Origin: Acidimicrobiales bacterium
GTDB taxonomy: Bacteria > Actinomycetota > Acidimicrobiia > Acidimicrobiales > Aldehydirespiratoraceae
Assembly: GCA_963422745.1 (NCBI GenBank)
Contig: OY730477.1
Span: forward strand, 759,734 to 823,733
DNA length: 64,000 nt
Direction: 5' to 3'
How positions within the stretch are numbered: position 1 is the first letter of the stretch; each line of letters starts with the position of its first letter. Shown one piece after another: positions 6,661 through 60,255 of the stretch. The translations under genes and the position numbers were made by a program. The notes beneath the pieces are model-generated. The model saw only the letters and a list, made by a program, of their open reading frames with translations. It had not been told where the DNA came from and ran no database searches.

Positions 6661-6669
6661 TAATCACGT

Positions 6670-6852: not shown

Positions 6853-6853
6853 T

Positions 6854-7099: not shown

Positions 7100-7193
7100 A
7101 AAGCAGGCCCAAGAGGCGGCTCTCGGTCGGGGCAAGCGGTGGGCCCTCTGCAGGGCCTGGGAGCGAACCAGTCGGGGTGGTGATGCCAGGCAC

Positions 7194-7224
7194 TTGTTTT
7201 TCATACGGCGGTGTGTGTTATGGT
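7194..7224 (+). promoter_or_regulatory. Candidate promoter TTGTTT-19 nt-TATGGT ending 7 nt before the lipoprotein ATG (cassette 2)
   Basis: This is the positional equivalent of 2967..2996. Its conservation between diverged cassettes is the main support. Confidence 0.3.
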
Positions 7225-7230
7225 GTGGTG

Positions 7231-8532
7231 ATGTCTGAGAAGTGTTTGTTGTTGGGTGGTTGTGGGTTTTTGGTTCGTTGGGGTGTGTTGGTGCGGTGTG
7301 TTGTGTTGGGGTTGGTTGTGGGGGTGTTGGTTGGTTGTGGTGGCGGGTCTCCTGAGGTCCCTGCAGAGCCTGAGGTGCCGGTCGAGTCTGTGGTGACGGC
7401 TGGGTTGCTTGGTGATGTGGCTGTTGGTTCGGGGGAGTTGTGTGGTGAGCCTGTTGTGTTGGATGATGCCACGGAGAGATGGCCGTCGCATCGGTGGGAT
7501 TGGGATGATGCTGCCCGGCATTGGGATGTTGATCTGTATGCGAGGCATTTTTCGGTGTCGCGTGAGGTGGCACAGCAGAGAGTGGATCGTTTGGGTGTGG
7601 TTTTGTCTGCGATGAAATCAATTGTGAGTCTTGAGTATTCTAGGGTAGCGAGTTGGAGATTTCATCGTACTGAGGATGGGATTGTGGGTTATGTGTTGTT
7701 GGCTGGTTCGGATCCTGTGTGTTTGGAGGCTTATGAGTTGGCGGCTAGTCTTGTGGATTTGGAGATTCGTGTCGGGGCACCGGATTCAAGAGTTGAGTTG
7801 TTGGCTGCGGAAGCCCGGATGTTTGAGTTGTTCCGAAAACGTGGTTATTTCAGAATAACTTCCATGGGTGGAGAGGAATACCGTATTCCTGGCCCTTCTA
7901 TTCTTGCTGATGGGTCTAGCGATGTTCGGTTCCCTGTGTTAGAGGTTCGGGTGTTTCCTAGTTCTTTGATTGGTCGGGTGCCTGATCGTTTGGCTCCAGC
8001 GGATTTGGCGTTGGTGACTGCTCAGGAGCGTCAGGCTATGTTTGATTGGGTGGCTGAAGGCTTGGCTGAGTATCTTGATGTGGGTTTCGTGATGGTAGAT
8101 CCCATCACGGAGGGCCCTCCTGGGGATTTGGTTGTGGCCCCGGATTATGGTCCGGGTGTGCCGAAATACGACCCGGATATGCCGTTGCAAAGACTATTCA
8201 GAAATCGGCCTGAGCTTCCATTCATGTTAGCTGGATATGAAGGGGTTCTTAGCATTGAGGAACCGTGTGTGTATATAGACGACTATATATTGAAGCTTCC
8301 GGAGTTTTTCACGCGTTATGATCCCCACACAGGCCAGCTTTGGGTACACGGCAATGGTCCTTTCGTCACCGGTGACAAAGTCTTCGTTGGTGGAGGACAA
8401 AGTGGTAATACTAAACCAGGATCAGTATGTGAACCGCGAAAAGAAATTAGATCGAGCGAGGATGGTTCATGGACCGGAGATAGAAATACATGGGCCGGAG
8501 ACAGTATGAAATTTCAGGAGGAAACGGAATGA
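7231..8532 (+). CDS. Putative prodomain-like lipoprotein, cassette 2 paralog
   Basis: MSEKCLLLGG...VVLGLVVGVLVGC has the lipobox. It is colinear with 3003..4349 and shares the conserved C-terminal block EEPCVYIDDYILKLPEF.TRYDP.TGQLWV.G.GPFVTGDKVFVGGGQ. Its stop overlaps the next protease ATG (ATGA at 8529-8532). Confidence 0.7.
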   Translation: MSEKCLLLGGCGFLVRWGVLVRCVVLGLVVGVLVGCGGGSPEVPAEPEVPVESVVTAGLLGDVAVGSGELCGEPVVLDDATERWPSHRWDWDDAARHWDVDLYARHFSVSREVAQQRVDRLGVVLSAMKSIVSLEYSRVASWRFHRTEDGIVGYVLLAGSDPVCLEAYELAASLVDLEIRVGAPDSRVELLAAEARMFELFRKRGYFRITSMGGEEYRIPGPSILADGSSDVRFPVLEVRVFPSSLIGRVPDRLAPADLALVTAQERQAMFDWVAEGLAEYLDVGFVMVDPITEGPPGDLVVAPDYGPGVPKYDPDMPLQRLFRNRPELPFMLAGYEGVLSIEEPCVYIDDYILKLPEFFTRYDPHTGQLWVHGNGPFVTGDKVFVGGGQSGNTKPGSVCEPRKEIRSSEDGSWTGDRNTWAGDSMKFQEETE

Positions 8533-10843: not shown

Positions 10844-10854
10844 TAGCCCCAGTT

Positions 10855-10895
10855 GACAATCTTGAGGTGCGCTATCCCGGGCTGGGTGAGTTGTT
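10855..10895 (+). other. 41-nt internal fragment of the MoaD-like gene at the right edge of the cassette array
   Basis: gacaatcttgaggtgcgctatcccgggctgggtgagttgtt matches the interior of 6854..7099 (about 6948-6988). It is preceded by cagttga, which is the first 7 nt of the inter-cassette junction. Confidence 0.7.
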
Positions 10896-12181
10896 TATGT
10901 TCCGGCCCGCGAGCCGATCCGTGCACGAGAACCGATCCGTGTGATCAAGGGGTATAGACCCGCTCCGATTAGCGACAGGGCACCCACGGCGGCCCAGTGG
11001 CTCAGAAAACCGAAGTCTCGGGTCTCAACGATCACACCGGACAGCAATCCTGCGACAGCCCCGGCCATCACCATTGTGAAGTCCGCAGCTCCCTGCACGG
11101 TGGCTCGTTGAGTGACGTCAAATGACGCTGTCAACAGAGCCGATCCGGACAAGGTGGCGATTGACCAACCCAGCCCCACCAAGAAGAGGCCGACGAACAC
11201 GCCGGTGCTGTCTGCGGGATCGGTACGCGACGCAAACTCGCCGCCGATGAACAACGTCACACCGGCGACCGCAACCATCACACCGGCACGTACCCGGTCA
11301 ACTACCCAACCCACCGCCGGCGAGAGCATGAACATGCCAACGACGTGCAGAGAAATCACGTAACCGATTACGCGCACTTCGTGGTTGCCGTCGTCCATGT
11401 GCAGAGGGGTAACGGTCATGATCCCGACCATGACCGCTTGTCCCACAGCCATAGCAAACACTGCTACCGCAGCCGGTGGATAGCCAGCCAGCCTGACGAA
11501 TGACTCACGCAACGAAGGCCTGGTCTCCTCCGGGCCCGTGGCACCGGTCTTCAGTGCTAGCAGCAGAGGATCGGGACGCAGCAATGTGTGGACCACCACC
11601 GAGGCCAGAGCGAAGACCACCACCCCCATCAGGTACGGCCCGGCCAATTCGTTGAGCCCCAGGAGTTTGGCTACACGTCCGGTCCCGCCGAGGGCGACGG
11701 TCGGACCGAGCACGGCACCAATTGAGCTCGCCCACACGACGATGCCGATGTCGCGACCCCGGTTGTCGGGCTCGGCCAGATCTGCGGCGACGTAACGGGC
11801 CGCCAGATTGGCTGCCTGGCCGACACCGATGCAGATCACCCCTCCCAGCAGCAGCGGATAGATCCGGCTCTGGATCGCTAGAAAGGCCACCAAGCTGCCG
11901 ATGCCGCCCACTATCCAGGCTCGCAGAAGACCCGGTCGGCGGCCGTGGCGAGCCATGTAGCGGCCCAACGGAACCGCAGCGATCGCTCCGCCGATGGCGA
12001 TCATGGTTGCAGCGAGCGTGGATAAGGCGTCGTTGTCGGTGATCTCCTTAGCGGCGAGGCTCGAAGCGGCGAACCCGGCTGCCATCCCCATACCGGCAGG
12101 CAGCACCGAAGCGATCAGTACCCAGCGGGTCCGAGCGTGGACTCGGCTTATGTCGGTGCAGGTACCGGTGATTGATGACAC
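10895..12181 (-). CDS. MFS transporter
   Basis: 428 aa, about 12 hydrophobic segments, with the MFS loop motif GRYMARHGRRPG between TM2 and TM3. Confidence 0.75.
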   Translation of the reverse strand: MSSITGTCTDISRVHARTRWVLIASVLPAGMGMAAGFAASSLAAKEITDNDALSTLAATMIAIGGAIAAVPLGRYMARHGRRPGLLRAWIVGGIGSLVAFLAIQSRIYPLLLGGVICIGVGQAANLAARYVAADLAEPDNRGRDIGIVVWASSIGAVLGPTVALGGTGRVAKLLGLNELAGPYLMGVVVFALASVVVHTLLRPDPLLLALKTGATGPEETRPSLRESFVRLAGYPPAAVAVFAMAVGQAVMVGIMTVTPLHMDDGNHEVRVIGYVISLHVVGMFMLSPAVGWVVDRVRAGVMVAVAGVTLFIGGEFASRTDPADSTGVFVGLFLVGLGWSIATLSGSALLTASFDVTQRATVQGAADFTMVMAGAVAGLLSGVIVETRDFGFLSHWAAVGALSLIGAGLYPLITRIGSRARIGSRAGT

Positions 12182-12804: not shown

Positions 12805-12827
12805 GTCCTTCACGATCACACTGTTGG

Positions 12828-12990
12828 GCTCCGGCCCTGTCCGAGCAAGTACCCGGCCTGTTGACGTCTGCGCTTCGCTCGGAGGTGCGTTGCGCTCCGG
12901 CCCTGTCCGAGCAGATACCCGGCCTGTTGACGTCTGCGCTTCGCTCGGAGGTGCGTTGGGCTCCGGCCCTTTTTGAGCAGATACCCGGCC
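12828..12990. repeat. Intergenic tandem repeat, 66-bp unit x about 2.5
   Basis: gctccggccctgtccgagca recurs at 12828, 12894 and 12960. Confidence 0.9.
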
Positions 12991-31539: not shown

Positions 31540-31850
31540 GAAGCAAAGCAACGCCTCGTGGGTTTGGTGGTTGTTGAGGAGAGGTAGGGCTTCGTGGGTT
31601 GTTGGTCGGTGAGGCATAGCAACGTCTCGTGGGTTTGTTGGTCGGTGAGGCATAGCAACGTCTCGTGGGTTTGTTGGTCGGTGAGGCATAGCAACGTCTC
31701 GTGGTTGTTGGTTGTTGAGGCATAGCAACGTCTCGTGGGTTTGTTGGTTGTTGAGGCATAGCAACGCCTGGGTTTGTTGGTCGGTGAGGTGAGGTAGGGC
31801 TTGGTGGGTTTGGTGGTCGGTGAGGCGAAACAACGTCCCACTGGTTGGTG
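31540..31850. repeat. Intergenic tandem repeat, 36-bp unit x about 8 (outer units degenerate)
   Basis: gaggcatagcaacg recurs at 31611, 31647, 31683, 31717 and 31753, with degenerate units on both sides. Confidence 0.85.
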
Positions 31851-35050: not shown

Positions 35051-36319
35051 CTAAAGGGCGGCCACCACGTAGTCGAGGCACCTCGTGAGGGCCTCGGTGT
35101 CAGCCGGGTCGATCGCGGGGAACATCCCGATTCGCAGCTGGTTGCGACCGAGTTTGCGGTAGCCGTTGGTGTCGATGATGCCGTTGGAGCGCAATACGTC
35201 GCTGACGGTATCGGCGTTGAGGGAGTCGTCGAAGTCAATGGTGGCAACCGTTGGCGAACGCTGCGCCTTGTCGGCCACGAACGGTTCAGCGAAGTCCACT
35301 TCCTCGGCCCACCCGTACAGAATCTCAGCATTCGCACGACTCCTGCCAGCCGACCATGCCAGGCCCCCGTTGTTGTTGAACCAGTTGACCGTCTCAAGAG
35401 TCAACAACACCGTGGCCAGCGCTGGCGTGTTGTAGGTCTGATCTTTGCGGGAGTTCGCAACGGCCTGGGCGAGGTTGAGTGTTGGCGGTATCCAGCGGCC
35501 GGACGACGCGATCGTCTCGATCCGCTCGATGGCGGCTGGCGACAGCATGGCCATCCACACCCCCCCGTCAGACGCGAGGGCCTTTTGCGGCGCGAAGTAG
35601 TAGACGTCGGTGGCGCGCGGGTCAAACATCACCGCGCCTGCACCAGACGTGGCGTCAACGATCATAAGGTCGCCCGGGCCACCAACTCTCACCGGTTCCA
35701 GAACCACCCCAGTGGACGTCTCGTTGTGCGGGTAGCAGTAGGCGTCCACCCTTTGGCTCCCGGTGCTACCCGCAGACTCGCTAATCCCCGCCACACCGTC
35801 AATGTCAGTAGCGCCATCAATATCAGCAGCGCCGTTGATGGTCTCCAGCGGTGGGTGCGTGCCCATGGCGGATTCGGCAATAGACGGCGCCTCAAGGTGT
35901 GGGGCCATGGCGACGGCTTTGGCGAACTTTGAGCCGAACTCGCCGAAGCAAAGGTGGTGGCTGCGTCGGTTGATCAGGCTGAACGTGGCGCAGTCCCAGA
36001 ACACCGTGGATCCACCGTTGCCGAGGATGATCTCGTAGCCGTCGGGTGCACGCAGCAGCTCGGCCAGTCCTCGGCGAAGATCTGCGACCACGCTACGCAC
36101 CGTTGCTTGACGGTGCGACGTGCCGAGATAGTCGCAGGCCCGGTCAAGCAGGGATTGCACGGCCTGGGGTCGAACCTTGGTTGGTCCGCTGCCGAAACGG
36201 CCGTCGGCGGGCAACAGATCGGCCGGTATCACGATATTGGGGATATTCACGGCCACTAGCGTTGCAGCAACGGACCCGAACGCCACACCTGGATATGAAC
36301 CAAACTCGATGATCCTCAA
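35051..36319 (-). CDS. serC: Phosphoserine aminotransferase (actinobacterial type); start uncertain (the track start is a TTG)
   Basis: LLPADGRFGSGPTKVRP.. and YFAPQKALASDGG. It contains an in-frame 18-bp repeat insertion (35796..35846). Confidence 0.75.
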   Translation of the reverse strand: MRIIEFGSYPGVAFGSVAATLVAVNIPNIVIPADLLPADGRFGSGPTKVRPQAVQSLLDRACDYLGTSHRQATVRSVVADLRRGLAELLRAPDGYEIILGNGGSTVFWDCATFSLINRRSHHLCFGEFGSKFAKAVAMAPHLEAPSIAESAMGTHPPLETINGAADIDGATDIDGVAGISESAGSTGSQRVDAYCYPHNETSTGVVLEPVRVGGPGDLMIVDATSGAGAVMFDPRATDVYYFAPQKALASDGGVWMAMLSPAAIERIETIASSGRWIPPTLNLAQAVANSRKDQTYNTPALATVLLTLETVNWFNNNGGLAWSAGRSRANAEILYGWAEEVDFAEPFVADKAQRSPTVATIDFDDSLNADTVSDVLRSNGIIDTNGYRKLGRNQLRIGMFPAIDPADTEALTRCLDYVVAAL

Positions 36320-36858
36320 ACCGGCTATTTGTCACCAAAGGCAGCACTCGCCGCTTCGAAGCCATCGTAGATGCACGGTGTGCTCTCCGACCGGCTCCTG
36401 CTACTCAACAGCATTCGCCGGTTCGAAGCCATCGTAGATGCACGGTGTGCTCTCCGACCGGCTCCTGCTACTCAACAGCATTCGCCGGTTCGAAGCCATC
36501 GTAGATGCACGGTGTGCTCTCCGACCGGCTCCTGCTACTCAACAGCATTCGCCGGTTCGAAGCCATCGTAGATGCACGGTGTGCTCTCCGACCGGCTCCT
36601 GCTACTCAACAGCATTCGCCGGTTCGAAGCCATCGTAGATGCACGGTGTGCTCTCCGACCGGCTCCTGCTACTCAACAGCATTCGCCGGTTCGAAGCCAT
36701 CGTAGATGCACGGTGTGCTCTCCGACCGGCTCCTGCTACTCAACAGCATTCGCCGGTTCGAAGCCATCGTAGATGCACGGTGTGCTCTCCGACCGGCTCC
36801 TGCTACTCAACAGCATTCGCCGGTTCGAAGCCATCGTAGATGCACGGTGTACTCTCCG
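36320..36858. repeat. Tandem minisatellite: one diverged 70-bp unit + seven 67-bp units (near-perfect) filling the serC-aspC divergent intergenic region
   Basis: accggct recurs at 36320, 36390, then every 67 nt to 36792. The ORF track shows identical 66-aa ORFs at 36371, 36438, 36505, 36572 and 36639. Confidence 0.95.
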
Positions 36859-36861
36859 CAG

Positions 36862-38058
36862 ATGATGATGGATCGCATCTCAAGGCGTGTAGGCGCCATC
36901 ACACCCTCGGCCACGCTCGCCGTGTCAGCCAAGGCGCGGTCCTTACGTGCCGCTGGAGAACATGTCATTGGTTTTGGTGCCGGAGAGCCCGACTTCGCCA
37001 CGCCTGCCCATATCGTTGAGGCCGCGGCGCGTGCATGTCGTGATCCCAGGAACCACAAGTACACCGCTGTCGGAGGATTGCCTGAGTTCAAAGAGGCGAT
37101 CGCGGCGAAGACCCTTCGTGACAGTGGTCTCGAAACCGACCCGGCATGCGTGTTGGTCACCAACGGCGGCAAACACGCCGTATACAACTGCTTCGAGGCG
37201 TTGCTGAACCCAGGCGAGGAGGTGCTGCTACCGGCACCGTACTGGACCACCTACCCCGAACCGATCGCCCTCGCTGGCGGAGTCGCAGTACCGGTCGTGA
37301 CCACGGCGGATGCCGGATTCCGGGTCACTCTTGAGCAACTCGAAAGCGCCCGCACGCCAGCCACCAAGGCGCTGGTATTCGTGTCGCCCTCCAACCCCAC
37401 TGGAGCGGTTTATCCCAAAGCAGAGATAGTTGCCATCGGTGAATGGGCCGTGAAGCACGGGATCTGGGTTGTGACCGACGAGATCTATGAGCACCTCGTC
37501 TACGGAGACAATGAGTTCCACTCGCTGCCCACCCTCGTGCCCGAGGTGCGCGATCACTGCGTGGTTCTCAACGGCGTGGCCAAGACCTACGCCATGACCG
37601 GATGGCGAGTCGGGTGGATGATCGGCCCGCCTGATCTGGTACGGGCTGCGCAGAACCTTCAGTCGCACTCCACCAGCAATGTGGCCAACGTCTCACAAGC
37701 GGCGGCTCTGGCGGCCGTTTCGGGCCCGCTCGACTCCGTGGCCGAAATGCGGGCCGCTTTCGACCGCCGTCGCCGAACCATGTATTCGATGCTGAGCGGC
37801 ATCGAAGGCGTGCACTGCGGTGAACCACAGGGCGCCTTCTACGCTTACCCGGACATGACGGGCGTTCTTGGTCGGCACTACGGAGCCGTCGCGGTCAACA
37901 CCACGATCGAGCTAGCCAGCGTGCTGTTGGATCGGGCCAAGGTCGCCATCGTTGCTGGCGAAGCGTTTGGTGTCGGCGGCGGTGCTCGTCTCTCTTTCGC
38001 CCTAGGCGATGACGACCTGCTCGAGGGCGTGCAGCGCATCGTCGATTTCCTGAGCTGA
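36862..38058 (+). CDS. aspC: Class I pyridoxal-phosphate aminotransferase (aspartate aminotransferase type)
   Basis: [21 protein letters not shown].., [16 protein letters not shown] and [13 protein letters not shown]. The track ORF start at 36706 lies inside the repeat array and was rejected. Confidence 0.8.
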
Positions 38059-38076: not shown

Positions 38077-40175
38077 ATGAACAGTAACGATCCGGTCATC
38101 GCTGGATACGGCGCATGGCCCTCGCCGATCTCAGCGGCAGACCTGGTATCGGGGGCTGTCGGCATCAGCGAGGTATGCGTTGACGGAACCGACATCTGGT
38201 GGGCTGAGAGTCGCCCCAACGAAGCAGGCCGCACAGCGGTCATGCGGTGGGGCAACGGACAAACCACCGAGATGACACCCCCCGGGGCCAACGTTCGCAC
38301 ACTCGTTCACGAATACGGCGGCGGCGCGTGGTGGGCGGATCGGGGCGTGTTGTACTACGTTGACTACTCCGATCAGCGTCTCCGGCGGCTCGAACCCGGC
38401 CAAGACGCAGTGATGCTCACGCCTGAGCCGCCGATCAAGCGGGGTCTGCGCTACGCCGACGGGCGGGTCAGCCCAGACGGGCGCTGGTTCGTCTGCGTCC
38501 GTGAACGTCACAGTGGATGTCCTGACGAAACGCTGACGCCAAGAACCGATGCCGGTGTTGGTGGGTCGGCGAATGAATCGACATTGGCCGGTGGCGAGAA
38601 TTCGGCAGCGGAACCAATCAACGAACTCGTCGCCGTGGCCACGGACAGCTCCGGGATCGTCAATGTCTTGTGGGCTGGTGCGGACTTCGTGTCGTCGCCG
38701 AGGATCTCACCCGACGGAACACTGATCGCCTGGGTGTCCTGGGACCACCCCAACATGCCCTGGGATGCCACCACCTTGAGAGTGCACCAATTCTCCAGAG
38801 GCTGCCTCGGACCCGTTGTGTTTGCGATCGGCAACGGCACGGAGTCCTGGCTGCAACCAGACTGGACCCCCAACAATGAACTACTGGCCTGCAGTGACCG
38901 CAACGAATGGTGGAGCCTTTACCGGATCAATGTCTCCGGGATCGATCCGGCGACTCGTGGTCCAGAGCCGGTGATCAAGCCGGTGATCGCAGGACCCTAC
39001 GACATCGCCACGCCGCCGTGGGTGTTCGGTATGCAGCGTTGGGCTGTAGACGGCTCTCACACCGTTGCCGTGGCCGCGATCAACACGGGCGACGAATTGG
39101 TGATTAACGGTGCAACCGTGGCGACCGTCGACACGTCGATCGAGTGCCTTCGTGCCATCTCCGAAGGCGTCGTATACGCCGGCTCGGGATACGGCAGCGA
39201 GACCGAGGTAGTGCGGCTGAGGATCCGTGAACGAGGTATCGAACGAGAGGTGATTTCCTCGAAGCGTGCACTGCCGGTCGGCACCGATTATCTCATCGAG
39301 CCCGAGTCCATTACGTTTCGGACCGGTACCACGCACGGTGCCACCGGTGAGGAAAGCCGCACCGATTCCTCTGGTGATTGTGCTGGCTCTCCCGTCGCTC
39401 ATGGCCTGTATTACCGGCCCACCAACCCCGATCACGTCGGAGCGCCCGACGAGCGTCCACCACTGCTGGTGCTCGCTCACGGAGGGCCAACCGGGCGTGC
39501 GAGACGCACGCTCCAACTGGCATCCTGTACTGGACATCGAGAGGTATCGCAGTGGTGGATGTTGATTACCGTGGATCCACGGGCTACGGACGGACCTATC
39601 GCCGTGCCTTGGAAGGCCAATGGGGGATTGCCGACGTTGAGGATTGCGTCTCAGCAGCCCGGTTCCTCGCCGAGCGTGGAGACGTGGATCCCGACCGGAT
39701 GATGATCCGCGGTGGCAGCGCGGGAGGGTTCACGGTCCTCTCCGCGCTTGCGTTTCACGATGTTTTTGCCGCCGGCGCCAGCCGCTACGGAGTAGCCGAT
39801 CTCGAAGCCCTCGCCACCGACACACACAAGTTCGAGTCTCGTTATCTCGACACGCTGATCGGTCGCTGGCCTGAGGACAAACAAACTTACGAACGTCGTT
39901 CGCCGATCAACCATCTCGAGCGGTTCAACACTCCAATGATCGTGCTTCAAGGAGCAGAAGATGTCATCGTGGCGCCAAACCAATCGGAGATGGTCGTGGC
40001 GGCTCTGCAGGAGCGATCCGTGCCCGTGTGCTACTTGCTCTTTGAAGGGGAACAGCACGGCTTCAGAAGGGCCGAATCGTTGATCACGGCCTTGGAAGCC
40101 GAACTCCGTTTCTTTGGTGAGATCCTCGGTTTTATTCCCGATGGGAACCTGCCCGACATCAAGATGCTGCGCTGA
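38077..40175 (+). pseudogene. S9 (prolyl oligopeptidase/acylaminoacyl peptidase family) serine peptidase with an N-terminal beta-propeller; apparent frameshift near 39505-39520
   Basis: ORF 38077..39702 ends ..LVLAHGGPTGRARRTLQL then becomes nonsense. ORF 39378..40175 picks up GILYWTSRGIAVVDVDYRGSTGYG.., GGSAGGF (Ser) and a late EGEQHGF (His). Confidence 0.75.
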
Positions 40176-41926: not shown

Positions 41927-44323
41927 TCACCCTATTTCGATGACGTCAAGCCGTGCGAGACTTGTGAGGTCGTTGACCTGGATACGGGCGGGTGCTAAAG
42001 CGCTAGGCCCACGGCGTCCACTTATTGACCAGAGTTCATCGCGATCAATCACCATGGTGCGACCGATAGCCCACAGCGGGTCCCTGGAGTGCACTCCTCC
42101 CCAGCAAATCACTATGTGCTTGTCGTCAAAGCTAGCTCCCATTGTTTCGATAATCTCAACTATTCCGATCATCTGAATTAGATCATTTCTTTCGGAGCAG
42201 TCCTTGTTGGCCAACTGAGACAGGTCTTCGGAGTCGCAGATCAAGACGCCGACGCCGTCATCGGCAAAAGATTGATATAGGTCAATCCCGGTCTGTGAAC
42301 CCAGGTTTCTCAGTTGCTCTTCGGTGATGTGATCACAGTCGGTGTTGATGAGAATGGAGTTGTCATGGTCGATGCGGCCGACCTCTATGAGTTCGCTACC
42401 GTCGACTCGCAGTATCACTGCGCCAGCCCACGGCATCACTGCGCCAGCCCACGGCATCACTGCGCCAGCCCACGGCCTGTCCTGCGCGGGAATGATGGCG
42501 ATTTGTTCAGGCTCCCACCAGTTGAAGGCCCGGTGGTCCCAGCCGATATCAGACCTCCCGTCGGGCAGAGCCCAAACCGCGACCTCGCGTGGATCTGCGG
42601 GATCGTTCACATCAAACAGCGACACCTTGGAGCCTGTTACCTGTCCTTGCTCGGTTGCGGTGGAGCCGACGCCGAGGACTCTGCCGTTGCCGATCGGGTG
42701 GAGGTAACTTGAGAAACCCGGGATCTTGAGTTCGCCGACCACAAGTGGGTTGGTGTGATCGCTGAGATCAAGCGTATAGAACGGGTCGATTTGTTCAAAG
42801 GTGACGACGTAGCCGACGTCGCCCACAAGCCGTACCGACTGCACGGCCTCGCCCTTGCCCATGTTACCAACGGAGCCGACCTCAACCAGATCGCCGTCGT
42901 CTTCGCGCAGGATCCGTAGGAAGGTCTCTGAAGATCCCTCCCATGGTCTACCCGTGGTTGTAACCACCCGCAAGTGGCCGTCGTATTCCGACATCGAGAA
43001 CTGATTGTGTAGGTAACCCGGAATCGATCCCGAGGCGGTGTAGGCGGCACTGTCGGCGGATAGTTCGAAGCGGTGGATGGAGGTTCGGTAATTGTCGAGT
43101 GCTTGTCGTAATGCTTCGGGATCTTCCTCGAAAGCCGCGGTGTCGATCCAGGATTGCGTTGTGACAAAGATCGATTCCGGGGAGGCATAGATCTTCTTTC
43201 CAGGAGCCAGAACAGCGGTGGTGGTGCCGGTGTCGATCGCTCCGTCGATTGGGATGCTCAGCACCGAAACCACTCCGAAACCGGCGAACTCGGTAGGGGC
43301 GTGCACTTGCTCACAAGTTGTGAGTAGCTCCTCTTGATTGGTGGATCCGTCGCTATCGAAACTCACAAAATGAGGAAGCCAATCCGATAATTCCGAATTC
43401 ATGACCGACTCCCTATTTGTCTGAGTGGCGGCATCAACACGGCGGTCATCGGATGGATCCGATGGGTAGACGAACCCCAACCTGTGGGGCTGGCTTCGCA
43501 GGATGATCCGGGCGACACCATTGATCGATCGGGCATTCACGTAGCTGCCCTCAACGACGATGCCGGACACCAGCACAGGATCGCTGTCAGTTATTTTGAC
43601 TCTGCTGATCAGGGTCAGGTAAATATTGTAGGAAGTGTTCTTCGGGAAGAGCTGGGCCCAGTTTTTGTCGTTGCGACGCGACGTCTGAGAGACGATCAGC
43701 AAGTCGTCGCCGTTCAGGAACATCTCAATGCCATAATCGGCCCAGGCCTTGTCCCGAAGGTCCAACGTGCCGGTGATTGATCGTTGTTGGGCGTCAATCA
43801 CGACCAGTTGTTGATCGGCAAGCACCAAGACCCGCTTTCCGTCGGTCTTGATCATGTCGGCCTCTTCGACACCGATCTCCGCGACGTTCGTTCCCGAGAA
43901 GTTGACGCCAGCCAACATCGCGGGGCCGGTCGCTGCAGCAGCCTGAGGAGAGCTGGCTGCGGATTCCGCTTCATCTTGTGCGTCAGCCAACGCATCGGGT
44001 TCCGTGGCATCATCCATGAGGTACCAATCCGGTGACATGAATCCGTATGGTCCGACCCGCTTGGCCGCGGCAGTCCGAAGATGCTCTAGCAGATCGTCGC
44101 AATTCGCGAAGCCCGACAAGGTGGATGTGAGTCGGATTTCTGAGCTGTTGGGTGCGGTATCGGCAGGGGCTGGATCAGCGCCCAGAGATCGAGGATCATC
44201 GCCACGACAAGCTGCCGTGGCGACGGTAATTACGGCGATCATGAGCATCGCCCGACGGGCTCGTATTGCACGACTGGCTCGTGGTTTGAGCCAAGCGATC
44301 ATTGTGGGCATGGATATGCTCAT
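41927..44323 (-). CDS. Beta-propeller domain lipoprotein (Pfam Beta_propel-type secreted protein), paralog A
   Basis: Signal ..MLMIAVITVATAAC. FSGTNVAEIGVEEADMIKTDG, HNQFSMSEYDGHLRVVTT and VGYVVTFEQIDPFYTLDLSDHTNPLVVGELKIPGFSSYLHPIG. The ATG at 44323 has GAGGT upstream. Confidence 0.7.
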   Translation of the reverse strand: MSISMPTMIAWLKPRASRAIRARRAMLMIAVITVATAACRGDDPRSLGADPAPADTAPNSSEIRLTSTLSGFANCDDLLEHLRTAAAKRVGPYGFMSPDWYLMDDATEPDALADAQDEAESAASSPQAAAATGPAMLAGVNFSGTNVAEIGVEEADMIKTDGKRVLVLADQQLVVIDAQQRSITGTLDLRDKAWADYGIEMFLNGDDLLIVSQTSRRNDKNWAQLFPKNTSYNIYLTLISRVKITDSDPVLVSGIVVEGSYVNARSINGVARIILRSQPHRLGFVYPSDPSDDRRVDAATQTNRESVMNSELSDWLPHFVSFDSDGSTNQEELLTTCEQVHAPTEFAGFGVVSVLSIPIDGAIDTGTTTAVLAPGKKIYASPESIFVTTQSWIDTAAFEEDPEALRQALDNYRTSIHRFELSADSAAYTASGSIPGYLHNQFSMSEYDGHLRVVTTTGRPWEGSSETFLRILREDDGDLVEVGSVGNMGKGEAVQSVRLVGDVGYVVTFEQIDPFYTLDLSDHTNPLVVGELKIPGFSSYLHPIGNGRVLGVGSTATEQGQVTGSKVSLFDVNDPADPREVAVWALPDGRSDIGWDHRAFNWWEPEQIAIIPAQDRPWAGAVMPWAGAVMPWAGAVILRVDGSELIEVGRIDHDNSILINTDCDHITEEQLRNLGSQTGIDLYQSFADDGVGVLICDSEDLSQLANKDCSERNDLIQMIGIVEIIETMGASFDDKHIVICWGGVHSRDPLWAIGRTMVIDRDELWSISGRRGPSALAPARIQVNDLTSLARLDVIEIG

Positions 44324-44537: not shown

Positions 44538-47048
44538 TCAGCCGATTTCTATTGCGTCAAGGCGGGCCAGGCTGGTTAGGTCATTGATCTGGACTCGGGC
44601 GGGTTGGCTTGAGTCGACTCTCCAGCGTCCGCTGATTGACCAGAACTCGTCGCCGTCAATCACCATGGTACGGCCGATTATCGGCATTCGCTCGGTGGGC
44701 CAACACAAAGCAATAGTCTCACTGTCGGTGAAGTCGATTCCGACCCATTCGGCTTCCTCGCTCAGGAATTCGTCCGCGAAGCATTCGTATCCGGTTACCT
44801 GAGTGCGATCGTCGGGTCCACATATGATGACCTGACCGACATCTTGCGACGTGCTTTCCAGCACGGTCTTTTCCAGTAGGGACTTTATGTTCTCGTTCTC
44901 GCCGACGTGGATGTCATCTGCGGTGACAAAGGTGCAGTCCGTCCTGCCGAGAATGTCGGTATCGGAAGTGTCGTGGTCGATTCGGCCGGTTTCAATGATC
45001 TCGTTGCCGTCGATACGCAGCACCACAGCGCCCGCCCAACTGCTGATGTGATCCTCGGTGTATGTTTCAAACGGTATGACGGCCACTTGTTCGGGTTCCC
45101 ACCACAAGAAACTGTGGTGGTCCCAGCCGATATAGGACCACCCGTCGGGCAGAGTCCAAACCGCGACCTCGCGAGGATCTGCGGGATCGTTCACATCAAA
45201 CAGCGATACCTTGGAGCCTGTTACCCGTCCTTGCTCGGTTGCGTCGGAGCCGACGCCGATGACACGACCGTTGCCGATCGGGTGGAGATAGCTGGAGAAA
45301 CCCGGGATCTTGAGTTCTCCGACCACCCGGGGGTCTGTGTGGTCGCTGAGATCCAAGGTGTAGAACGGGTCAACCTGTTCAAAGGTGACGACGTATCCGA
45401 CGTCGCCGATTAGTCGCACCGACTGCACAGTTTCGCCCTTGCCCATGTCGCCTACCGAGCCGATCTCAATCAGCTCACCTTCGCTCTCGCGCAGGACACG
45501 CAGGAAGGTCTCTGAGGATCCATCCCACGGATCGCCGGTGCTGGTAACCACCCGGAGATGGCCGTCGTATTCCGACATCGAGAACTGATTGTGCAGGTCG
45601 CCTGGGACGGACCCCGAAGCAGTGTAGGCGGCGCTGTTTGATGACAGCTCGAACCGGTGGATCGCGGTTTCACGAGCTTCCAATGCTCGCTGGGAGATAT
45701 CAGGGTCCTCTGCAGAGGCTGCGACGTCGATCCATGCCTGCGTGGCAACGAACACAGACTGGGTGGAGGCGTAGGTCATTTCGCCGGGGGCTAGCACGGC
45801 TGTGGTAGTGCCAATGTCGATATCGCCATCCACCGGGATGCTCAGCACCGACAACACACCGAATCCGGCAAACACGGTGGGGACATGAACCTGCTCACAA
45901 CCCAACAGTGATGTGCTGGTCTCCTCGTAGCCGCGGTTATCGAACCGCACGGTGCGAGGTAGCCAATCCGACAGCTCGGTAGCAAGTACCGCTTCGCGGT
46001 TGATTCGTGTGGCCGCATCGTGTCCCTGTTCGTTCTCCGGGTAGACGAACCCCAGATTGTGGTCGGGATGGCTTCGCACGATTATGCGGGCGACACCGTC
46101 GATCGATCGGGAATCCACGTAGCTGCCCTCAATGACAAGGCCCGATACCAGCACAGGATCGCCATCGGTCAACTCAACTCTGCTGATCAAGGTCAGGTTG
46201 GTTTGATCGTCAATGTCGTCGGGAAGGGCCCGGACTTGTGGTTCGGGGTCGTAGCTTGGCCACTGCTGTGAGACGATCAGCAGGTCATCGCCTTGCAGGA
46301 ACATCTCTGTGCCTGAATCTGCCCAGGCCTTTTCTCTGAGCTTCAATCTGCCGGTGACCAGTCGCTGTTGGGCGTCGATCACGACCAGTTCGTCGTTGGC
46401 GAGAACCAAGACCCGTTTCCCGTCTGTCTTGATGAGGTCGGCTTCGTCAACACCAATCTCAGCCACGTTCGTTCCCGAGAAATTCACACCGAATAATGGC
46501 CCTGAGTTGTCCGAATCCAATGCTGCGTCCGCGCTGCGGTTTACCCGAACTCCCGAAGCAGCACTGCTGGCAGGCCCCGTGCCAGCTTCCGTGCCGCCCA
46601 TCTGCGGGCCGAACCCGCCGCTTGAGTCGAATCCGTAGGGACCGACCCTTGCTGCTGCGGTGGTATGGATGTGCTGGAGCAGATCGTCGCAGTTCCCGAA
46701 GTTCGAAAGGGTGGACGTGAATCGGATTTCCGAGTGGGCTGGCACAATCCCCGCAAGCTCGCCTGTGCTGGGATCGGTGACAGAGGGATCCGCGCCACTC
46801 GGATTGGTGCCTAGCGACAGGGGGTCATCGCCTCTACACGCTGCCGCAACGACCGTAGCGATGGCGATCGTTAGAACCGCCAGGCTTGCACGCAGCCTTG
46901 ACCTAGACGTTGATTCGGGTTTGCTCATGGGTTTGCCCAGCGACTCGGGTTTGCTCATGGCGGGTTTGCTCATGGCGACTTTGCCCAGTGAGGCGACTTT
47001 GCTCATGGCGGGTTTGCTCATGGCGACTTTGATCCTGACTTGAGTCAA
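44538..47048 (-). CDS. Beta-propeller domain lipoprotein, paralog B (start uncertain; MSKP-repeat N-terminus)
   Basis: Colinear with paralog A. Signal ..LAVLTIAIATVVAAAC. Several in-frame ATGs lie in a short-repeat region at 46905..47030. Confidence 0.7.
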   Translation of the reverse strand: MTQVRIKVAMSKPAMSKVASLGKVAMSKPAMSKPESLGKPMSKPESTSRSRLRASLAVLTIAIATVVAAACRGDDPLSLGTNPSGADPSVTDPSTGELAGIVPAHSEIRFTSTLSNFGNCDDLLQHIHTTAAARVGPYGFDSSGGFGPQMGGTEAGTGPASSAASGVRVNRSADAALDSDNSGPLFGVNFSGTNVAEIGVDEADLIKTDGKRVLVLANDELVVIDAQQRLVTGRLKLREKAWADSGTEMFLQGDDLLIVSQQWPSYDPEPQVRALPDDIDDQTNLTLISRVELTDGDPVLVSGLVIEGSYVDSRSIDGVARIIVRSHPDHNLGFVYPENEQGHDAATRINREAVLATELSDWLPRTVRFDNRGYEETSTSLLGCEQVHVPTVFAGFGVLSVLSIPVDGDIDIGTTTAVLAPGEMTYASTQSVFVATQAWIDVAASAEDPDISQRALEARETAIHRFELSSNSAAYTASGSVPGDLHNQFSMSEYDGHLRVVTSTGDPWDGSSETFLRVLRESEGELIEIGSVGDMGKGETVQSVRLIGDVGYVVTFEQVDPFYTLDLSDHTDPRVVGELKIPGFSSYLHPIGNGRVIGVGSDATEQGRVTGSKVSLFDVNDPADPREVAVWTLPDGWSYIGWDHHSFLWWEPEQVAVIPFETYTEDHISSWAGAVVLRIDGNEIIETGRIDHDTSDTDILGRTDCTFVTADDIHVGENENIKSLLEKTVLESTSQDVGQVIICGPDDRTQVTGYECFADEFLSEEAEWVGIDFTDSETIALCWPTERMPIIGRTMVIDGDEFWSISGRWRVDSSQPARVQINDLTSLARLDAIEIG

Positions 47049-49126: not shown

Positions 49127-50277
49127 CTGTGTGTTTTCCTGTTGGTTCGCCTGGATTGCGCCTCCATGGTTACGTTGCGTATGAGATCAACGAAGGGCTT
49201 TACAAAAACGTCGGGCCTGGTGACGCAACCAGCGTGGGTTATTGGTATGTGAGTGATTCGTGCCTGAGGCAGCTGTGACGCCAGCACGTGTTGGGTTCCG
49301 GCGTCAACGACTTGGTCCAGGGTGGTTACCGCTATGCCCACCGCCGCGTTGATCCCCGACACCCAGGAGCGACTGTCAAACCTTGCCAGCTCGCCGCCAG
49401 CCTCCAGTAGGGCTGGTAGTTCAGCGGACCCGATTTCTGTTGCGAACCATCGCAGTGGCTCGGTGTCACCAGGACGCGAAGCGACCCTAAATCCACGCGC
49501 AAGCAATGCCAGTTGCCGGCGCCGACTCAATGGTTTCGTGAGTGGGGCGACCGCACCTGCGGTGTGCAATAGTCGGGTTTGGCGGGCGCTTCTCGGTAAA
49601 CGGGCCCAGGTCGCCGCCAAGACGACACCGTCGACTAACTCCGGGTGGTCGCGGGCGACGAGTTGGGCCACGGCACCTCCCATGGAATATCCGACAACCA
49701 CTATGGGGTTTTCGCACCTCATCGTGTGCAACATGGCCGCCACGTCATCCGCGGCATCAACAAGCCTGAACCGGCTCCGGCTACGGATTCCTTGACCGTG
49801 ACCACGATGATCGATGCTGATGACGTCGGCGAACTCTGCGAGAGGCTCATAGACCCGGAACCAGTTCAATGCACCGGTGACCGACCATCCGTGAAGCAAT
49901 ATCAAGGTGGGGCGATGCTTTGGGTATGCGTCACTGAGTTGGCGCACGAAAGTCGTGCCACGTCCAGACAACTCCAAGGAATATCCAACCGGCAGACGTG
50001 GGCGGCCGGTGCTGGGATCGCCTTGCTCGAATCTTTCGTCACCGGACCGAAATAGCTTCGTCGGGGCTCTCAGAACGTCATCACTAGTTGCCGTTGTGGT
50101 GTCTGACGCGTGGGTGGGGGCGGTCAGAATGTCATCACTGGTTGCGGTTGTGGTGTCTGACGCATGGGTGAGGGCCGACCCGGGTGCGTCTGGGTCACCG
50201 AAAACGCAGTCAGGTCGAGGCGATGGCATCGTGCACTTGTAGGACGCTGCGAGCGGTTTTGGGTTCCGCAGTTGCAT
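49123..50277 (-). CDS. Alpha/beta-fold hydrolase (start uncertain) with an N-terminal 18-aa duplication
   Basis: ILLHGWS and the nucleophile elbow GYSMGG. There is a 4-nt overlap with the leuC start. Confidence 0.65.
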
Positions 50278-51967: not shown

Positions 51968-52885
51968 ATGCCGATAACGCCCACGCCCAACATCTGGATG
52001 AATGGCGAGATGGTGCCCTGGAACGACGCAAAGATCCATGTGCTCACCCACACCCTGCACTACGGCACAGGGGTGTTTGAAGGTATCCGTGCATATGAGA
52101 CAGCTGATGGACCAGCTCTGTTTCGTCTCACCGACCACATCAAACGCCTATACGACTCTGCCCGGATACTCGGGATGGTCATGCCTTTCTCGGTGCCTGA
52201 GATTGTGCAGGCATGCAAAGACGTCGTTGCCGACTCGGGCCTGTTGGAGTGCTACCTACGTCCGATCGCCTACTACGGCTACGGCGAGATGGGACTCGCA
52301 ACCACTGACTGCAACATCGACATCGCCATCGCTGCGTGGCCATGGGGCGCCTACCTCGGTGACGACGCCGCTACCCGAGGTGTGCGCATGAAGATCAGTT
52401 CCTGGAACCGCCATGATCACAACATCATGCCGCCGTCGTCGAAGACCACCGGCAACTATGCCAACTCAACGCTCGCCAAGATGGAGGCGCTGCGGGCGGG
52501 ATACGACGAAGCGATCATGTTGAACAGTGTGGGGCTGGTGAGCGAATGCTCTGGCGAGAATCTGTTCTGTCGCAAAGGCGACGTTGTGATCACACCGCCG
52601 ATCAGCTCGGGTGCCCTTGCCGGGATAACCCAGGATTCGGTGACCCGACTCGCCCAAGATCACGGCATTGAAATCAGGATCGGCGACATGTCCCGCAGCG
52701 ATCTGTACACCGCCGATGAGATCTTCGTAGTCGGCACAGCCGCTGAGATCAGCGCGGTCAACTCCGTCGACGACCGGCCTATCCGTTGTCCGGGCCGGTG
52801 CACCTCAACGTTGGCTACGGCGTACGCTGAACTGGTTCGCGGCAAGAACCCGAAGTATGCAGCCTGGAATGAACTGGCGGCCTGA
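51968..52885 (+). CDS. ilvE: Branched-chain amino acid aminotransferase
   Basis: IWMNGEMVPWNDAKIHVLTHTLHYGTGVFEGIRAY and ECSGENLF. Confidence 0.85.
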   Translation: MPITPTPNIWMNGEMVPWNDAKIHVLTHTLHYGTGVFEGIRAYETADGPALFRLTDHIKRLYDSARILGMVMPFSVPEIVQACKDVVADSGLLECYLRPIAYYGYGEMGLATTDCNIDIAIAAWPWGAYLGDDAATRGVRMKISSWNRHDHNIMPPSSKTTGNYANSTLAKMEALRAGYDEAIMLNSVGLVSECSGENLFCRKGDVVITPPISSGALAGITQDSVTRLAQDHGIEIRIGDMSRSDLYTADEIFVVGTAAEISAVNSVDDRPIRCPGRCTSTLATAYAELVRGKNPKYAAWNELAA

Positions 52886-53051
52886 GATCGTGTCCACTGC
52901 TCGCGTCGCGGCTGGCCTATCCGTTGTCCGGGCGGGTGCACCTCAACGTTGGCTACGGCGTACGCTGAACTGGTTCGCGGCAAGAACCCGAAGTATGCAG
53001 CCTGGAATGAACTGGCGGCCTGAGATCGTGTCGACTGCTCGCGTCGCGGCC
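52776..53051 (+). repeat. 138-bp tandem duplication (x2) spanning the last 36 codons, the stop and 28 nt downstream of ilvE
   Basis: ggcctatccgttgtccggg occurs at 52776 and 52914. cctgagatcgtgtc occurs at 52881 and 53019. Confidence 0.9.
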
Positions 53052-54855: not shown

Positions 54856-56298
54856 GTGACCGTTAGCCTCGGCTTGGTGAATGCTCCTCGTGTCCGGTTC
54901 GCGCCAGCCCCGACCGGTTACCTGCACGTCGGCAGCGCACGATCGGCGCTGTTCAACTGGCTCTATGCGCGTGGTCACGGCGGCACGATGGTGTTGCGAA
55001 TCGAAGACACCGATGCGTCGCGCAAGACCCAAGCCTTCGTGGACGCCATCCTGGAGCCGCTCAGATGGCTGGGCATCGACTGGGACGAGGGCCCGTACTT
55101 CCAAAGCGACCGGACCGAATCCCATGTCTGTGCGGTCCAGCGTCTGGTTCGTAGCGGCTGGGCATACAACTGTGATCTAACCCGCGACGAGATTATTGCC
55201 CTGTGTCGTTCATCGGGCTTGCCTGAGGGCTACCACGGATGGTCTCGTGACCGTGACGTTCAAGACGGCCCCGGTGTGGTTGTCCGGTTCCGGGTGCCCA
55301 ACGATCAACAGGTGGTCGTAAACGACATCGTTCGTGGACGCGTTGAGTTCGCAAGCCACACGATCGAGGACTTTGTCATCAGGCGAGGCAACGGAACCCC
55401 GACCTTCCATATCGCCAACACCGTCGACGATCACGACATGGGCATAACGCACGTGATTCGTGGCGAGGATCTGCTCAACACAACGCCCAGGGTGCTGCTG
55501 TTGTGGCGCGCGCTCGGCTACGGAGACCCTCCGAACTACGCCCATCTTCCGTTGCTGGTGAATGCCCAGCGCAAGAAGCTGTCGAAACGCCGTGACGACG
55601 TGGCGCTGGGGACCTACATGGCTCGCGGGTACCTGCCCGAGGCCATGGTCAATGCTCTGGCTCTGCTGGGTTGGGGACCGCGCGACGGGGTCGAGATCCG
55701 CCCGATCGCAGAGATCGTTGAGTTGTTCACGCTGGCTGAGGTGAACCGGTCGCCCGCGTTTTTTGATATCGACAAGCTCAACCACCTCAATGCTGCCTAC
55801 ATAAAGGCGCTCCGGCCTGCTCGGTTCGCGGAACTGGTAGAGCCCTATCTGTTGGGCCCGGATGTGGGTTGGCCAGTCGAGGCCTACCGCGCCGAGGTGG
55901 TCGAGGCGCTGGCACCCGATATCCAGCAGCGTATCTCGGTGCTGTCAGAAGCTCCGCAGTGGCTGCGCTGGCTGTTCGTTGACGGGATCGATAGCTTCGA
56001 CCAGCGATCGTGGACCAAAGCGATGATCAAGGGCCGTGCGGCCGCCCGTGTGATTGACGAGGTCGCCGAAGCGCTGCGTGAATTGGACTTCAAGAACCCA
56101 GACGAGATCGAAGCCGCGGTAATGGGTGTCGGAAACCGTCTGACGGCTGAGCTCGGTAGCCGGGTGATGTCACAGGCACCGGTGCGGGTCGCGCTAACCG
56201 GTCATAGCGCTGGCATTCCGCTGTGGCGGGCTATGACCCTGTTGGGTCGCGATGCTTGCCTCGCCCGCTTGGCCGCTGCTCGTTCCCGACTGTTGTAA
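54856..56298 (+). CDS. gltX: Glutamate--tRNA ligase
   Basis: RFAPAPTGYLHVGSARSALFNW (HIGH-type) and KLSKRR (KMSKS-type). It is followed by tRNA-Gln and tRNA-Glu. Confidence 0.9.
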   Translation: MTVSLGLVNAPRVRFAPAPTGYLHVGSARSALFNWLYARGHGGTMVLRIEDTDASRKTQAFVDAILEPLRWLGIDWDEGPYFQSDRTESHVCAVQRLVRSGWAYNCDLTRDEIIALCRSSGLPEGYHGWSRDRDVQDGPGVVVRFRVPNDQQVVVNDIVRGRVEFASHTIEDFVIRRGNGTPTFHIANTVDDHDMGITHVIRGEDLLNTTPRVLLLWRALGYGDPPNYAHLPLLVNAQRKKLSKRRDDVALGTYMARGYLPEAMVNALALLGWGPRDGVEIRPIAEIVELFTLAEVNRSPAFFDIDKLNHLNAAYIKALRPARFAELVEPYLLGPDVGWPVEAYRAEVVEALAPDIQQRISVLSEAPQWLRWLFVDGIDSFDQRSWTKAMIKGRAAARVIDEVAEALRELDFKNPDEIEAAVMGVGNRLTAELGSRVMSQAPVRVALTGHSAGIPLWRAMTLLGRDACLARLAAARSRLL

Positions 56299-56650
56299 TA
56301 ACCCGACTGTTATAGCACCCAGCGCGATGAGCTGGCTATGACCCTGTTGGGTCGCGATGCTTGCCTCGCCCGCTTGGCCGCTGCTCGTTCCCGACTGTTG
56401 TAATAACCCGACTGTTATAGCACCCAGCGCGATGAGCTGGCTATGACCCTGTTGGGTCGCGATGCTTGCCTCGCCCGCTTGGCCGCTGCTCGTTCCCGAC
56501 TGTTGTAATAACCCGACTGTTATAGCACCCAGCGCGATGAGCTGGCTATGACCCTGTTGGGTCGCGATGCTTGCCTCGCCCGGCTGGCCGCTGCTCGTTC
56601 CCGACTGTTGTAACAACCCGACTGCTATAGCACCCAGCGCGATCAGCTGG
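56231..56650 (+). repeat. 105-bp tandem repeat x4 whose first unit contains the last 22 codons and stop of gltX
   Basis: ctatgaccctgttggg occurs at 56231, 56336, 56441 and 56546. The last unit is slightly diverged. Confidence 0.95.
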
Positions 56651-58762: not shown

Positions 58763-59983
58763 TCACAGCGGTGGGACATGAGTGGCACGGATCCGGTTGT
58801 GCCAGAGGCCCCCGATGGCTGTGGCGACTAGGACAAGAACACCAAGCGCGGCGAGTGTGTGACGGATTCCGAAGCGATCCGCGAGCAGCCCGATCGGCAG
58901 CGTCACGAGACCCAACGCGCTGAAGCTGAGCATCAGCAAAGACTGGACCCGACCGTGGTACTCCATAGCCGACAGCGAGATGGCAAGCGAGCCGTTGAGC
59001 GACTGAAACGCAGACATAGCCGCACCGACCAAAGCCATTACAACCACTGCACCCCAGAACCAGGGACTTGTTGCGAAACCGATGAGCGACGCTCCCAGCA
59101 CCACTGCGGCGAGCGTGTGACGGCGTTGCAACCTACCTGGGGTGGTGTCGGCGAGCACGATGGACACGATGACAGCCCCTAGCGCGGCCGCGGTCGTCAT
59201 CAGACCCAAAGAGGCGGCATCACGACCGAAGAGGTCCCCCACAACCACGGGCAAAAAGACCTGAACCGGAAACCCGAACACGACTGTGGCCATAGACATC
59301 ACGATGATTCTCATCAGGTCGCTGCGAGCACGGACGTATCTGATGGCGTCGCTGAGATCCTTCAGAGGCCCGCCGGGTCGGCGAAGTGATGGCCCGCTAC
59401 GAGGAAGCAGCATTGTGAGCACGACCGAAACGCCCGAAAGAACCGACCCGATGAAAAAGACACCTCCGAGGCCGACCCAGACCACGCCGATCAGCGTTCC
59501 CGCGATCGCAGGACCCAGGATCCGGGTGGCCTGCAAGCTCATCGTAGACAACATCACCGCGTTGGTCAGCCGGTCTCTTTGTACGAGTTCCGCGATCATC
59601 GCCATCCGGGCGGGTGCAAGCAACGAGATCGCCGCCCCACCCAGTATCGCCGCGGCTACCACCATCCAGTAGGCGACCATTCCCGTCTTGACGGCGGTAC
59701 CCATCGCCACAGCGGTCAGCGTGTTTACCAGCTGGCAACCGATCATGACTGCACGTTTGTCGACCCGGTCTGCGAGCACACCACCGACGGGGATCGCAAC
59801 GAGCCCGGCAAGGCCGAAGCCGAGCATCACCCCGCCGAGGGCAGCGTTGGTCCCGGTGATCTCATATGTGAGCCATGCTCGGGCGATCTGTTGCACCTGC
59901 ATAGCCAAAAAGACGAAAGTGCCACCCCACCAGAGCCGCCGGAAGGTCACGATTCCGAGGCTGTCGAATCGTGAGCTCGTCAC
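58763..59983 (-). CDS. MFS transporter
   Basis: 406 aa, about 12 TM segments, with the GGVLADRVDKR loop motif. Confidence 0.75.
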   Translation of the reverse strand: MTSSRFDSLGIVTFRRLWWGGTFVFLAMQVQQIARAWLTYEITGTNAALGGVMLGFGLAGLVAIPVGGVLADRVDKRAVMIGCQLVNTLTAVAMGTAVKTGMVAYWMVVAAAILGGAAISLLAPARMAMIAELVQRDRLTNAVMLSTMSLQATRILGPAIAGTLIGVVWVGLGGVFFIGSVLSGVSVVLTMLLPRSGPSLRRPGGPLKDLSDAIRYVRARSDLMRIIVMSMATVVFGFPVQVFLPVVVGDLFGRDAASLGLMTTAAALGAVIVSIVLADTTPGRLQRRHTLAAVVLGASLIGFATSPWFWGAVVVMALVGAAMSAFQSLNGSLAISLSAMEYHGRVQSLLMLSFSALGLVTLPIGLLADRFGIRHTLAALGVLVLVATAIGGLWHNRIRATHVPPL

Positions 59984-60090: not shown

Positions 60091-60255
60091 TGCTCACCCT
60101 GCTGCCGGGGCACAGCGGTGCCTGGCAGCGGAGACCACCCATCCCACACCAGGTGTGCTCACCCTGTCGTCAGGGGCACAGCGGTGCCTGGCAGCGGAGA
60201 CCACCCATCCCACACCAGGTGTGCTCACCCTGTCGTCAGGGGCACAGCGGTGCCC
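60091..60255. repeat. Tandem repeat, 66-bp unit x about 2.5, upstream of the CoA-transferase gene
   Basis: cacagcggtgcc recurs at 60111, 60177 and 60243. Confidence 0.9.

Follow-up and report, generated by a model that had tools for sequence, protein, structure and literature searches.

The spacer between the divergent genes serC and aspC of this uncultured Acidimicrobiales bacterium contains a 67-bp tandem array in which only the copy next to aspC keeps the conserved A of the aspC -10 element. The most reasonable explanation for it, and one that we hold to be probable, is that the array is a young, ordinary minisatellite (VNTR) of the aspC promoter that has pushed two leaderless promoters apart and is itself near-neutral. 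We examined it within the window, that is, the whole 64,000-nt (64-kb) stretch of DNA analysed, and by comparison with 80 related loci.

An exact search allowing up to three mismatches finds seven head-to-tail copies of the 67-mer at 36390–36858, where none is expected in shuffled sequence (100 shuffles), and TRF calls an array at 36342–36858 (period 67, 7.7 copies, 99% matches) whose score of 1013 is the highest of any array in the window. Six of the units (36390–36791, plus strand) are mutually identical, with no mismatch among them, and read TGCTCT where a -10 hexamer would be. The terminal unit (36792–36858, plus strand), the putative working copy of the aspC promoter, differs from these six solely by a G to A change at 36851, which gives TACTCT at 36850–36855; the array ends at 36858, three bases (cag) before the aspC ATG at 36862. 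At the serC-facing edge lies unit 0, a diverged unit of 70 nt (36320–36389, plus strand) whose homology is detected by BLAST and TRF from 36342 only. Its 3' 48 nt (36342–36389) match the unit at 46 of 48 positions (96%), with G at the position equivalent to -11, whereas the alignment of its 5' 22 nt comprises 14 identities, 4 mismatches and 5 gap columns, so that the 3' part is much the better conserved (Fisher p = 0.04 on mismatches, plus the indels). This contrast could reflect constraint on the promoter segment, or its gene conversion, from a cause that lies outside our preferred explanation. Both the exact search and TRF bear out the preliminary description of seven 67-bp units plus one diverged unit between divergent serC and aspC, and the high identity of the units supports its proposal that the expansion is recent.

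Contiguous head-to-tail copies of a 10–100-bp unit without spacers, here seven and a diverged eighth, are what characterizes a minisatellite; as the units abut without unique spacers, the array is not a CRISPR array. Nor is it a known structured RNA, since a search of 36150–36950 against Rfam returned only chance-level matches (E > 3), also at a permissive threshold, and in the whole window the gathering score is reached by tRNAs only. As 67 is not divisible by three (3 x 67 = 201), the array generates the ladder of identical 201-nt phantom ORFs that had been noticed previously: five identical ORFs of 66 aa (36371–36839, plus strand) start at 36371, 36438, 36505, 36572 and 36639, and a sixth, beginning with the ATG at 36706, continues in frame into aspC. 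The 66-aa translations have no match in Pfam.

This sixth ORF bears on the annotation of aspC, which encodes an aspartate aminotransferase-type PLP enzyme (NCBIfam aspartate transaminase, E 8e-108). The public protein call (P0001) is 450 aa long and begins at ATG 36706 within the sixth repeat unit (36706–38058), and most of the aspC homologues listed are 398–403 aa long and align from residue 1. These comparisons indicate that the true start is the ATG at 36862, for a protein of 398 aa (36862–38058, plus strand), and that the 450-aa call is misannotated. The array in this way leads gene callers to place the aspC start 52 codons too early, and it makes the longest-ORF start of serC seem to touch the repeat.

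With the start at 36862, the TACTCT of the terminal unit (36850–36855, plus strand) is very probably the -10 hexamer of a leaderless aspC transcript: its first T is the twelfth nucleotide upstream of the ATG, which predicts that transcription begins at the A of that codon. In M. tuberculosis, 73% of primary start sites have a TANNNT 7–12 bp upstream, with no -35 consensus, and SNPs that create a TANNNT often yield new start sites (PMC3898074); where genes of high-GC bacteria are leaderless, the hexamer begins ~12 bp before the start codon (PMC3160421), which is the placement found here. Of 19 close relatives, 18 have a TANNNT that ends 6–8 nt before the aspC ATG, with middle bases that vary freely (TAGCCT, TACGAT, TACTAT, TATTAT, TAGTCT, TAGTGT, TATGGT, TACCCT and TACTCT). 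When the 60 nt before the ATG were aligned with MAFFT across 16 genomes, the columns of T36850, A36851 and T36855 were the only invariant ones. The suggestion that aspC is leaderless, at first a guess, is thus supported by comparative evidence. Elsewhere in the window TANNNT peaks 12–13 nt before candidate starts (9 observed against ~3 expected), which fits with leaderless initiation being common in the Acidimicrobiales source organism. Candidate starts preceded by TANNNT at 12–14 nt include 33506 (gTACGATccaaaatcATG), 54877, 26402, 41814 and 32037, and this placement suggests that the window may hold several further leaderless genes. A consensus scan for sigma-70 promoters and terminators found nothing; as the scan demands an E. 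coli-like -35 element, a null result was expected.

The serC side of the spacer required a revised gene start. serC encodes a phosphoserine transaminase of actinobacterial type on the minus strand (NCBIfam TIGR01366 serC_3, E 2e-147), and its longest open frame, of 422 aa, opens with a TTG at 36319, the position at which the preliminary description had started the gene. This TTG is merely the first one of the longest frame. Homology to relatives begins at residue 12–27 of that frame, depending on the relative, and places the start at the GTG at 36250–36248 (CDS 35051–36250), because a GTG occupies the aligned position in all 18 close relatives and three relatives have an in-frame stop three codons upstream of it with no alternative start. 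Between this GTG and the array lie 69 bp of unique DNA if the boundary is set at 36320, or 91 bp if the TRF boundary is used. The segment 36251–36319 has no match to the unit and holds both a block resembling the 'gccgttttg' region of the relatives and a predicted extended -10 element, TGCAACGCT (36258–36266, minus strand), 7 nt before the GTG. The same pattern, TGnNAnnnT ending 6–8 nt before the serC GTG, is shared by the window and by 18 of 18 close relatives, which implies that the serC mRNA would likewise be leaderless and would start from its own conserved extended -10 promoter. The promoters of both genes had been thought to lie necessarily within the repeat; since the serC box lies in unique DNA, the array does not fill the serC promoter. 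Within the serC coding region, at 35799–35833, there is also a small in-frame repeat of 18 bp x 1.9 (…DIDGATDIDGVAG…); it lies in an insertion that interrupts the serC_3 profile match, leaving two stretches.

The single base that distinguishes the terminal unit was originally seen as a G-to-A change that had made a -10 element. TACTCT as the -10 element stands, and its creation by such a change does not, since A is the conserved, ancestral state. A36851 is best taken as ancestral, and the G of the other seven copies as derived and likely to disable the -10, because relatives that have no array carry TANNNT at the same distance from the ATG and their A column is invariant. The converse order of events, in which an array made up wholly of TGCTCT units came into being first and the last of them later mutated from G to A, giving aspC its leaderless -10, is what a majority rule within the array would favour, G being present in seven of the eight copies. 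We consider this order very unlikely, as 18 of 19 relatives already have TANNNT at the exact distance from the ATG without any array, the relative L013 reads ggTACTCTccggacATG with the A column invariant across the 16 genomes, and a promoterless interim for a housekeeping gene such as aspC is implausible.

A single random substitution in a 67-nt unit would fall in any of the invariant columns with p = 0.045 and in the column of A36851 with p = 0.015. The pattern of A and G is therefore suggestive of selection against additional live promoters, or of an expansion in which only a disabled copy was tolerated. Unequal crossing-over would keep the terminal A passively, and the pattern, which amounts to one observation, is no proof of selection.

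The position of the conserved -10 element at the 3' end of the unit also indicates where the unit came from. By eye, the 3' 40 nt of the unit resemble the sequence upstream of aspC in relatives, for example in L013, where window ggtgTACTCTccgcagATG corresponds to cggTACTCTccggacATG, and in L009, where GAAATCC...TCGT corresponds to GAAGCC...TCGT of the unit; in the MAFFT alignment the -10 region alone aligns convincingly between unit and relatives. Judged by this comparative inference, the unit holds the promoter elements of the gene downstream of it, as in a promoter VNTR, and what has been amplified in tandem would be the aspC core promoter (positions -3 to -69, counted from the ATG), with the gene-proximal copy alone intact.

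tblastn searches showed that the divergent arrangement of serC and aspC is conserved in the lineage. The two start codons are separated by 71–146 bp in 17 relatives, by 231 bp in one and by 611 bp here; with the array collapsed to one copy, the spacer of the window would measure 142 bp. The serC–aspC spacer is free of arrays in all 80 related loci, and no copy of the unit was found in those loci or, even with BLAST at word size 7, elsewhere in the window. These results weigh on the idea that the array belongs to a dispersed repeat family, MIRU-like or REP-like, and was inserted from elsewhere. The genome is rich in arrays with units of 66–138 bp, and the heads of some of them share short words with one another, such as GGCTAT and CCCTG, as members of one family might. 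We find the idea scarcely credible all the same: the window and the related loci hold no further copy of the unit, the arrays of the window are mutually unrelated in sequence, the shared words are no commoner than in resampled segments, and the 3' part of the unit is recognizable as the local, ancestral aspC promoter. A common 'head' motif of the arrays (GGC(C)TAT, CCCTGT, ACCGGC...GCCGGT), which would have hinted at a site-specific mechanism or at such a family, was considered separately and rejected, as resampling gave p = 0.03 with 5-mers and p = 0.15 with 6-mers, with no excess over whole units.

Beyond the related loci, larger collections were searched for the unit and for its flanking proteins. 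A protein-guided scan with one genome per species gave, as the closest aspC relatives, uncultured Acidimicrobiales and Acidimicrobiia MAGs at 73–82% amino acid identity, and in a collection of 5.8 billion proteins the sole 100% match to aspC is the 450-aa call, the next being 82–83% identical. A 24-mer of the unit has zero matches in 185,579 species-representative GTDB genomes, as does a 29-mer, with R at the variable site, in JGI metagenome contigs. Exact-protein look-ups of aspC with three alternative starts and of the downstream peptidase returned no match, and no second genome of the source species was found in the collections searched. The accD-like neighbour gene is present, identical, in one short Logan contig built from short reads (ERR11641160, L081), which ends inside serC before reaching the array.

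The copy number given here is accordingly that of a single assembly, and an assembly artefact, in which one or two real units were inflated or their number misjudged, has to be weighed as a rival reading. There is one assembly of the species, the sole independent contig (Logan ERR11641160) stops short of the array, and a frameshift in the neighbouring peptidase gene could be a consensus error. These points are countered by the source contig, whose length of 3.33 Mb suggests long reads able to span 540 bp, and by the edges of the array, which are sensible in that the first unit is diverged and the last carries the conserved -10 base. The same architecture was noted in four further arrays of the window. 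Graph assemblers usually collapse perfect repeats and do not expand them, and this also speaks against inflation. On balance we regard an artefact as highly improbable. The peptidase gene in question, which is S9-type peptidase/esterase-like (38077–40175), is split into overlapping frames at 38077–39702 and 39378–40175; the frame changes near 39480–39520 at no obvious homopolymer, and the gene is a pseudogene or contains a consensus error.

The array is not the only one at a gene boundary in the window. A 66 bp x 2.5 array is intergenic (12823–12990), and a second of the same dimensions (60091–60254) lies in the divergent spacer between the ORF at 58763–59983, on the minus strand, and a plus-strand gene with 60075 as the start of its longest ORF and with a further in-frame GTG downstream, at 60330. 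A 138 bp x 2 duplication with 98% identity (52776–53050) covers the stop codon of the ORF at 51968–52885 and the whole spacer up to the GTG at 53077. Finally, a 105 bp x 4 array (56229–56650), consisting of three identical units and a last one with five mismatches, duplicates the 3' end and stop region (taataa, read as taacaa in the last unit) of the ORF at 54856–56298, just upstream of genes for tRNA-Gln (56740) and tRNA-Glu (56919); in having inner units that are identical and an outer one that has diverged, it recalls the 67-bp array. No sequence relationship links these four arrays with one another or with the 67-bp unit. Counting arrays with a period of at least 30 under the same TRF settings (score of at least 100), we found ~13 in the 64-kb window and 13 in 686 kb of relatives (L001–L080, Acidimicrobiia and actinobacterial loci), a difference of about ten-fold in density. 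Because other, unrelated arrays sit at gene boundaries and the density is in excess, these data point to a genome-wide propensity to form and keep minisatellites rather than to a device specific to serC–aspC. An excess of young minisatellites of this size suggests a lineage-specific repeat dynamic, and the arrays of the window could become markers for strain typing.

Other repeats in the window lie within genes. Four arrays inside long ORFs have periods that are multiples of three, namely 36 bp (31543–31837), 21 bp (42414–42476), 48 bp (46916–47031) and 54 bp (50063–50175), and presumably are in-frame coding repeats. Three related repeats of 303–306 bp x 2 are found within large plus-strand ORFs at 1601–2216, 6093–6656 and 10243–10812. 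The block from 1 to 12000 has a GC content of 51–56%, compared with ~60%, and a strongly positive GC skew; it may encode paralogous repeat-containing surface proteins or be an acquired island.

Could the serC–aspC array nevertheless be a selected regulatory device whose copy number tunes aspC and/or serC? Its units, each with -35-region sequence and an inverted repeat, would then offer RNA polymerase or some regulator multiple operator or decoy sites, or else the stack would serve to uncouple the divergent promoters by spacing them. An imperfect inverted repeat, ACCGGCTCCTGCT / AGCATTCGCCGGT, with 13-nt arms 7 nt apart (36390–36422), recurs once per unit, and as a single strand the unit folds modestly better than shuffled sequence (z of -1.8 to -4.0 as RNA and of -2.1 to -2.5 as DNA). 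The inverted repeat could be a protein-binding site. Unit 0 adds a perfect 10-bp palindrome, GCTTCGAAGC (36353–36362). The pattern ACCGGC-N-GCCGGT occurs eight times in the window where 0.3 are expected, though seven of the eight are the array itself and the other is at the edge of another minisatellite. That the altered base of the internal copies is the key base of the -10 element (a chance of ~1.5–4.5%) would fit with silencing of these copies while their upstream sites were kept, and in M. tuberculosis the copy number of a promoter VNTR has been linked to the expression of lpdA (cited in PMC9213004). On the other side, no other gene of the window has the inverted repeat as an upstream motif, the array is absent from all 80 related loci, unrelated arrays occur at gene 3' ends of the same genome where promoter logic does not apply, and a period of 67 bp is no whole number of helical turns. 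We therefore consider a selected device unlikely; a regulatory role through copy number is possible, the support for it being limited to the existence of the inverted repeat. Two further elements were given no weight. The palindrome GCTTCGAAGC is also present in the serC–aspC spacers of L015, L017 and L018, at other positions, and is not conserved in other relatives; we take it to be a coincidence, and the minus-strand TACGAT (a TANNNT) that points toward serC in each unit is expected by chance at a rate of about one TANNNT per unit.

A more elaborate proposal, to which we give a decidedly small chance, is that selection keeps the stack as an evolvable dial that retunes both genes, the formation of boundary minisatellites at a high rate having been exploited for regulation. 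If so, each internal unit would be a single G-to-A reversion away from providing a second aspC promoter, with a leadered transcript, slippage would alter how far apart the serC and aspC promoters lie as well as the number of binding sites upstream, and the lineage could quickly retune two amino-acid biosynthesis genes.

In our preferred explanation, that of a young promoter minisatellite with little effect, the 67 bp directly upstream of aspC would have undergone repeated tandem duplication, most probably by replication slippage or unequal recombination, in a genome that appears unusually prone to such duplications; the hairpin-forming inverted repeat in each unit could favour slippage. The internal copies, having G at the second position of the hexamer, would be poor or dead promoters. 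The serC promoter would be untouched, retaining its own -10 element and ~140 bp that resemble the collapsed spacer, and aspC would keep one complete promoter unit. Two back-to-back leaderless promoters would thus have been moved ~470 bp further apart by seven inert promoter-like copies. Because both genes keep their ancestral proximal context, the effect would be limited to spacing and inert copies, and the influence of the array on the expression of serC and aspC is probably near-neutral. It would then provide a clean natural example of tandem promoter duplication in which the conserved A of the -10 element is kept only by the gene-proximal copy.

Several known systems share features with this array. 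The short-repeat contingency loci of Neisseria and Haemophilus, with their phase-variable promoters, likewise have repeats in promoter regions, the number of which could in principle alter expression. Their units are 1–9 nt long and change the spacing between the -35 and -10 elements, whereas in the serC–aspC spacer whole 67-bp promoter copies have been added upstream and the geometry of the working promoter is unchanged. MIRUs resemble the array in having head-to-tail units of 40–100 bp in intergenic DNA of a high-GC actinobacterium. They form a dispersed family, with related units at many loci that typically lie within an operon, between two of its genes, and their small ORFs overlap the stop and start codons of the genes on either side. 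The serC–aspC unit, in contrast, has no dispersed relatives within the 64-kb window, where it is specific to its locus; it lies in a divergent promoter region, between genes that are not co-directional members of an operon, and derives from the local promoter, and its ORFs are a by-product of frame cycling.

The putative aspC promoter itself is like the leaderless sigma-A-type promoters of actinobacteria, in which the first T of TANNNT is 12 nt before the ATG, as is the first T of the conserved TACTCT (PMC3898074, PMC3160421). It is unlike the usual promoters of this type in having been amplified in tandem. Among described systems, the nearest are VNTRs located in promoters of M. tuberculosis, an example being VNTR3690 upstream of lpdA (Rv3303c), where copy number together with differences in promoter sequence has been linked to expression, according to PMC9213004. 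VNTR3690 and the serC–aspC array are both tandem repeats with units of tens of bp in actinobacterial intergenic DNA, directly upstream of a gene and with promoter sequence inside the repeat. They differ in that the host of the latter belongs to the class Acidimicrobiia, its array is set between two divergent, predicted leaderless housekeeping genes, and all of its copies but the last have a base that should disable the -10 element. The literature searched contained no report linking Acidimicrobiia with tandem repeats, and the serC–aspC array would extend promoter-type VNTRs from the mycobacteria to this poorly studied class.
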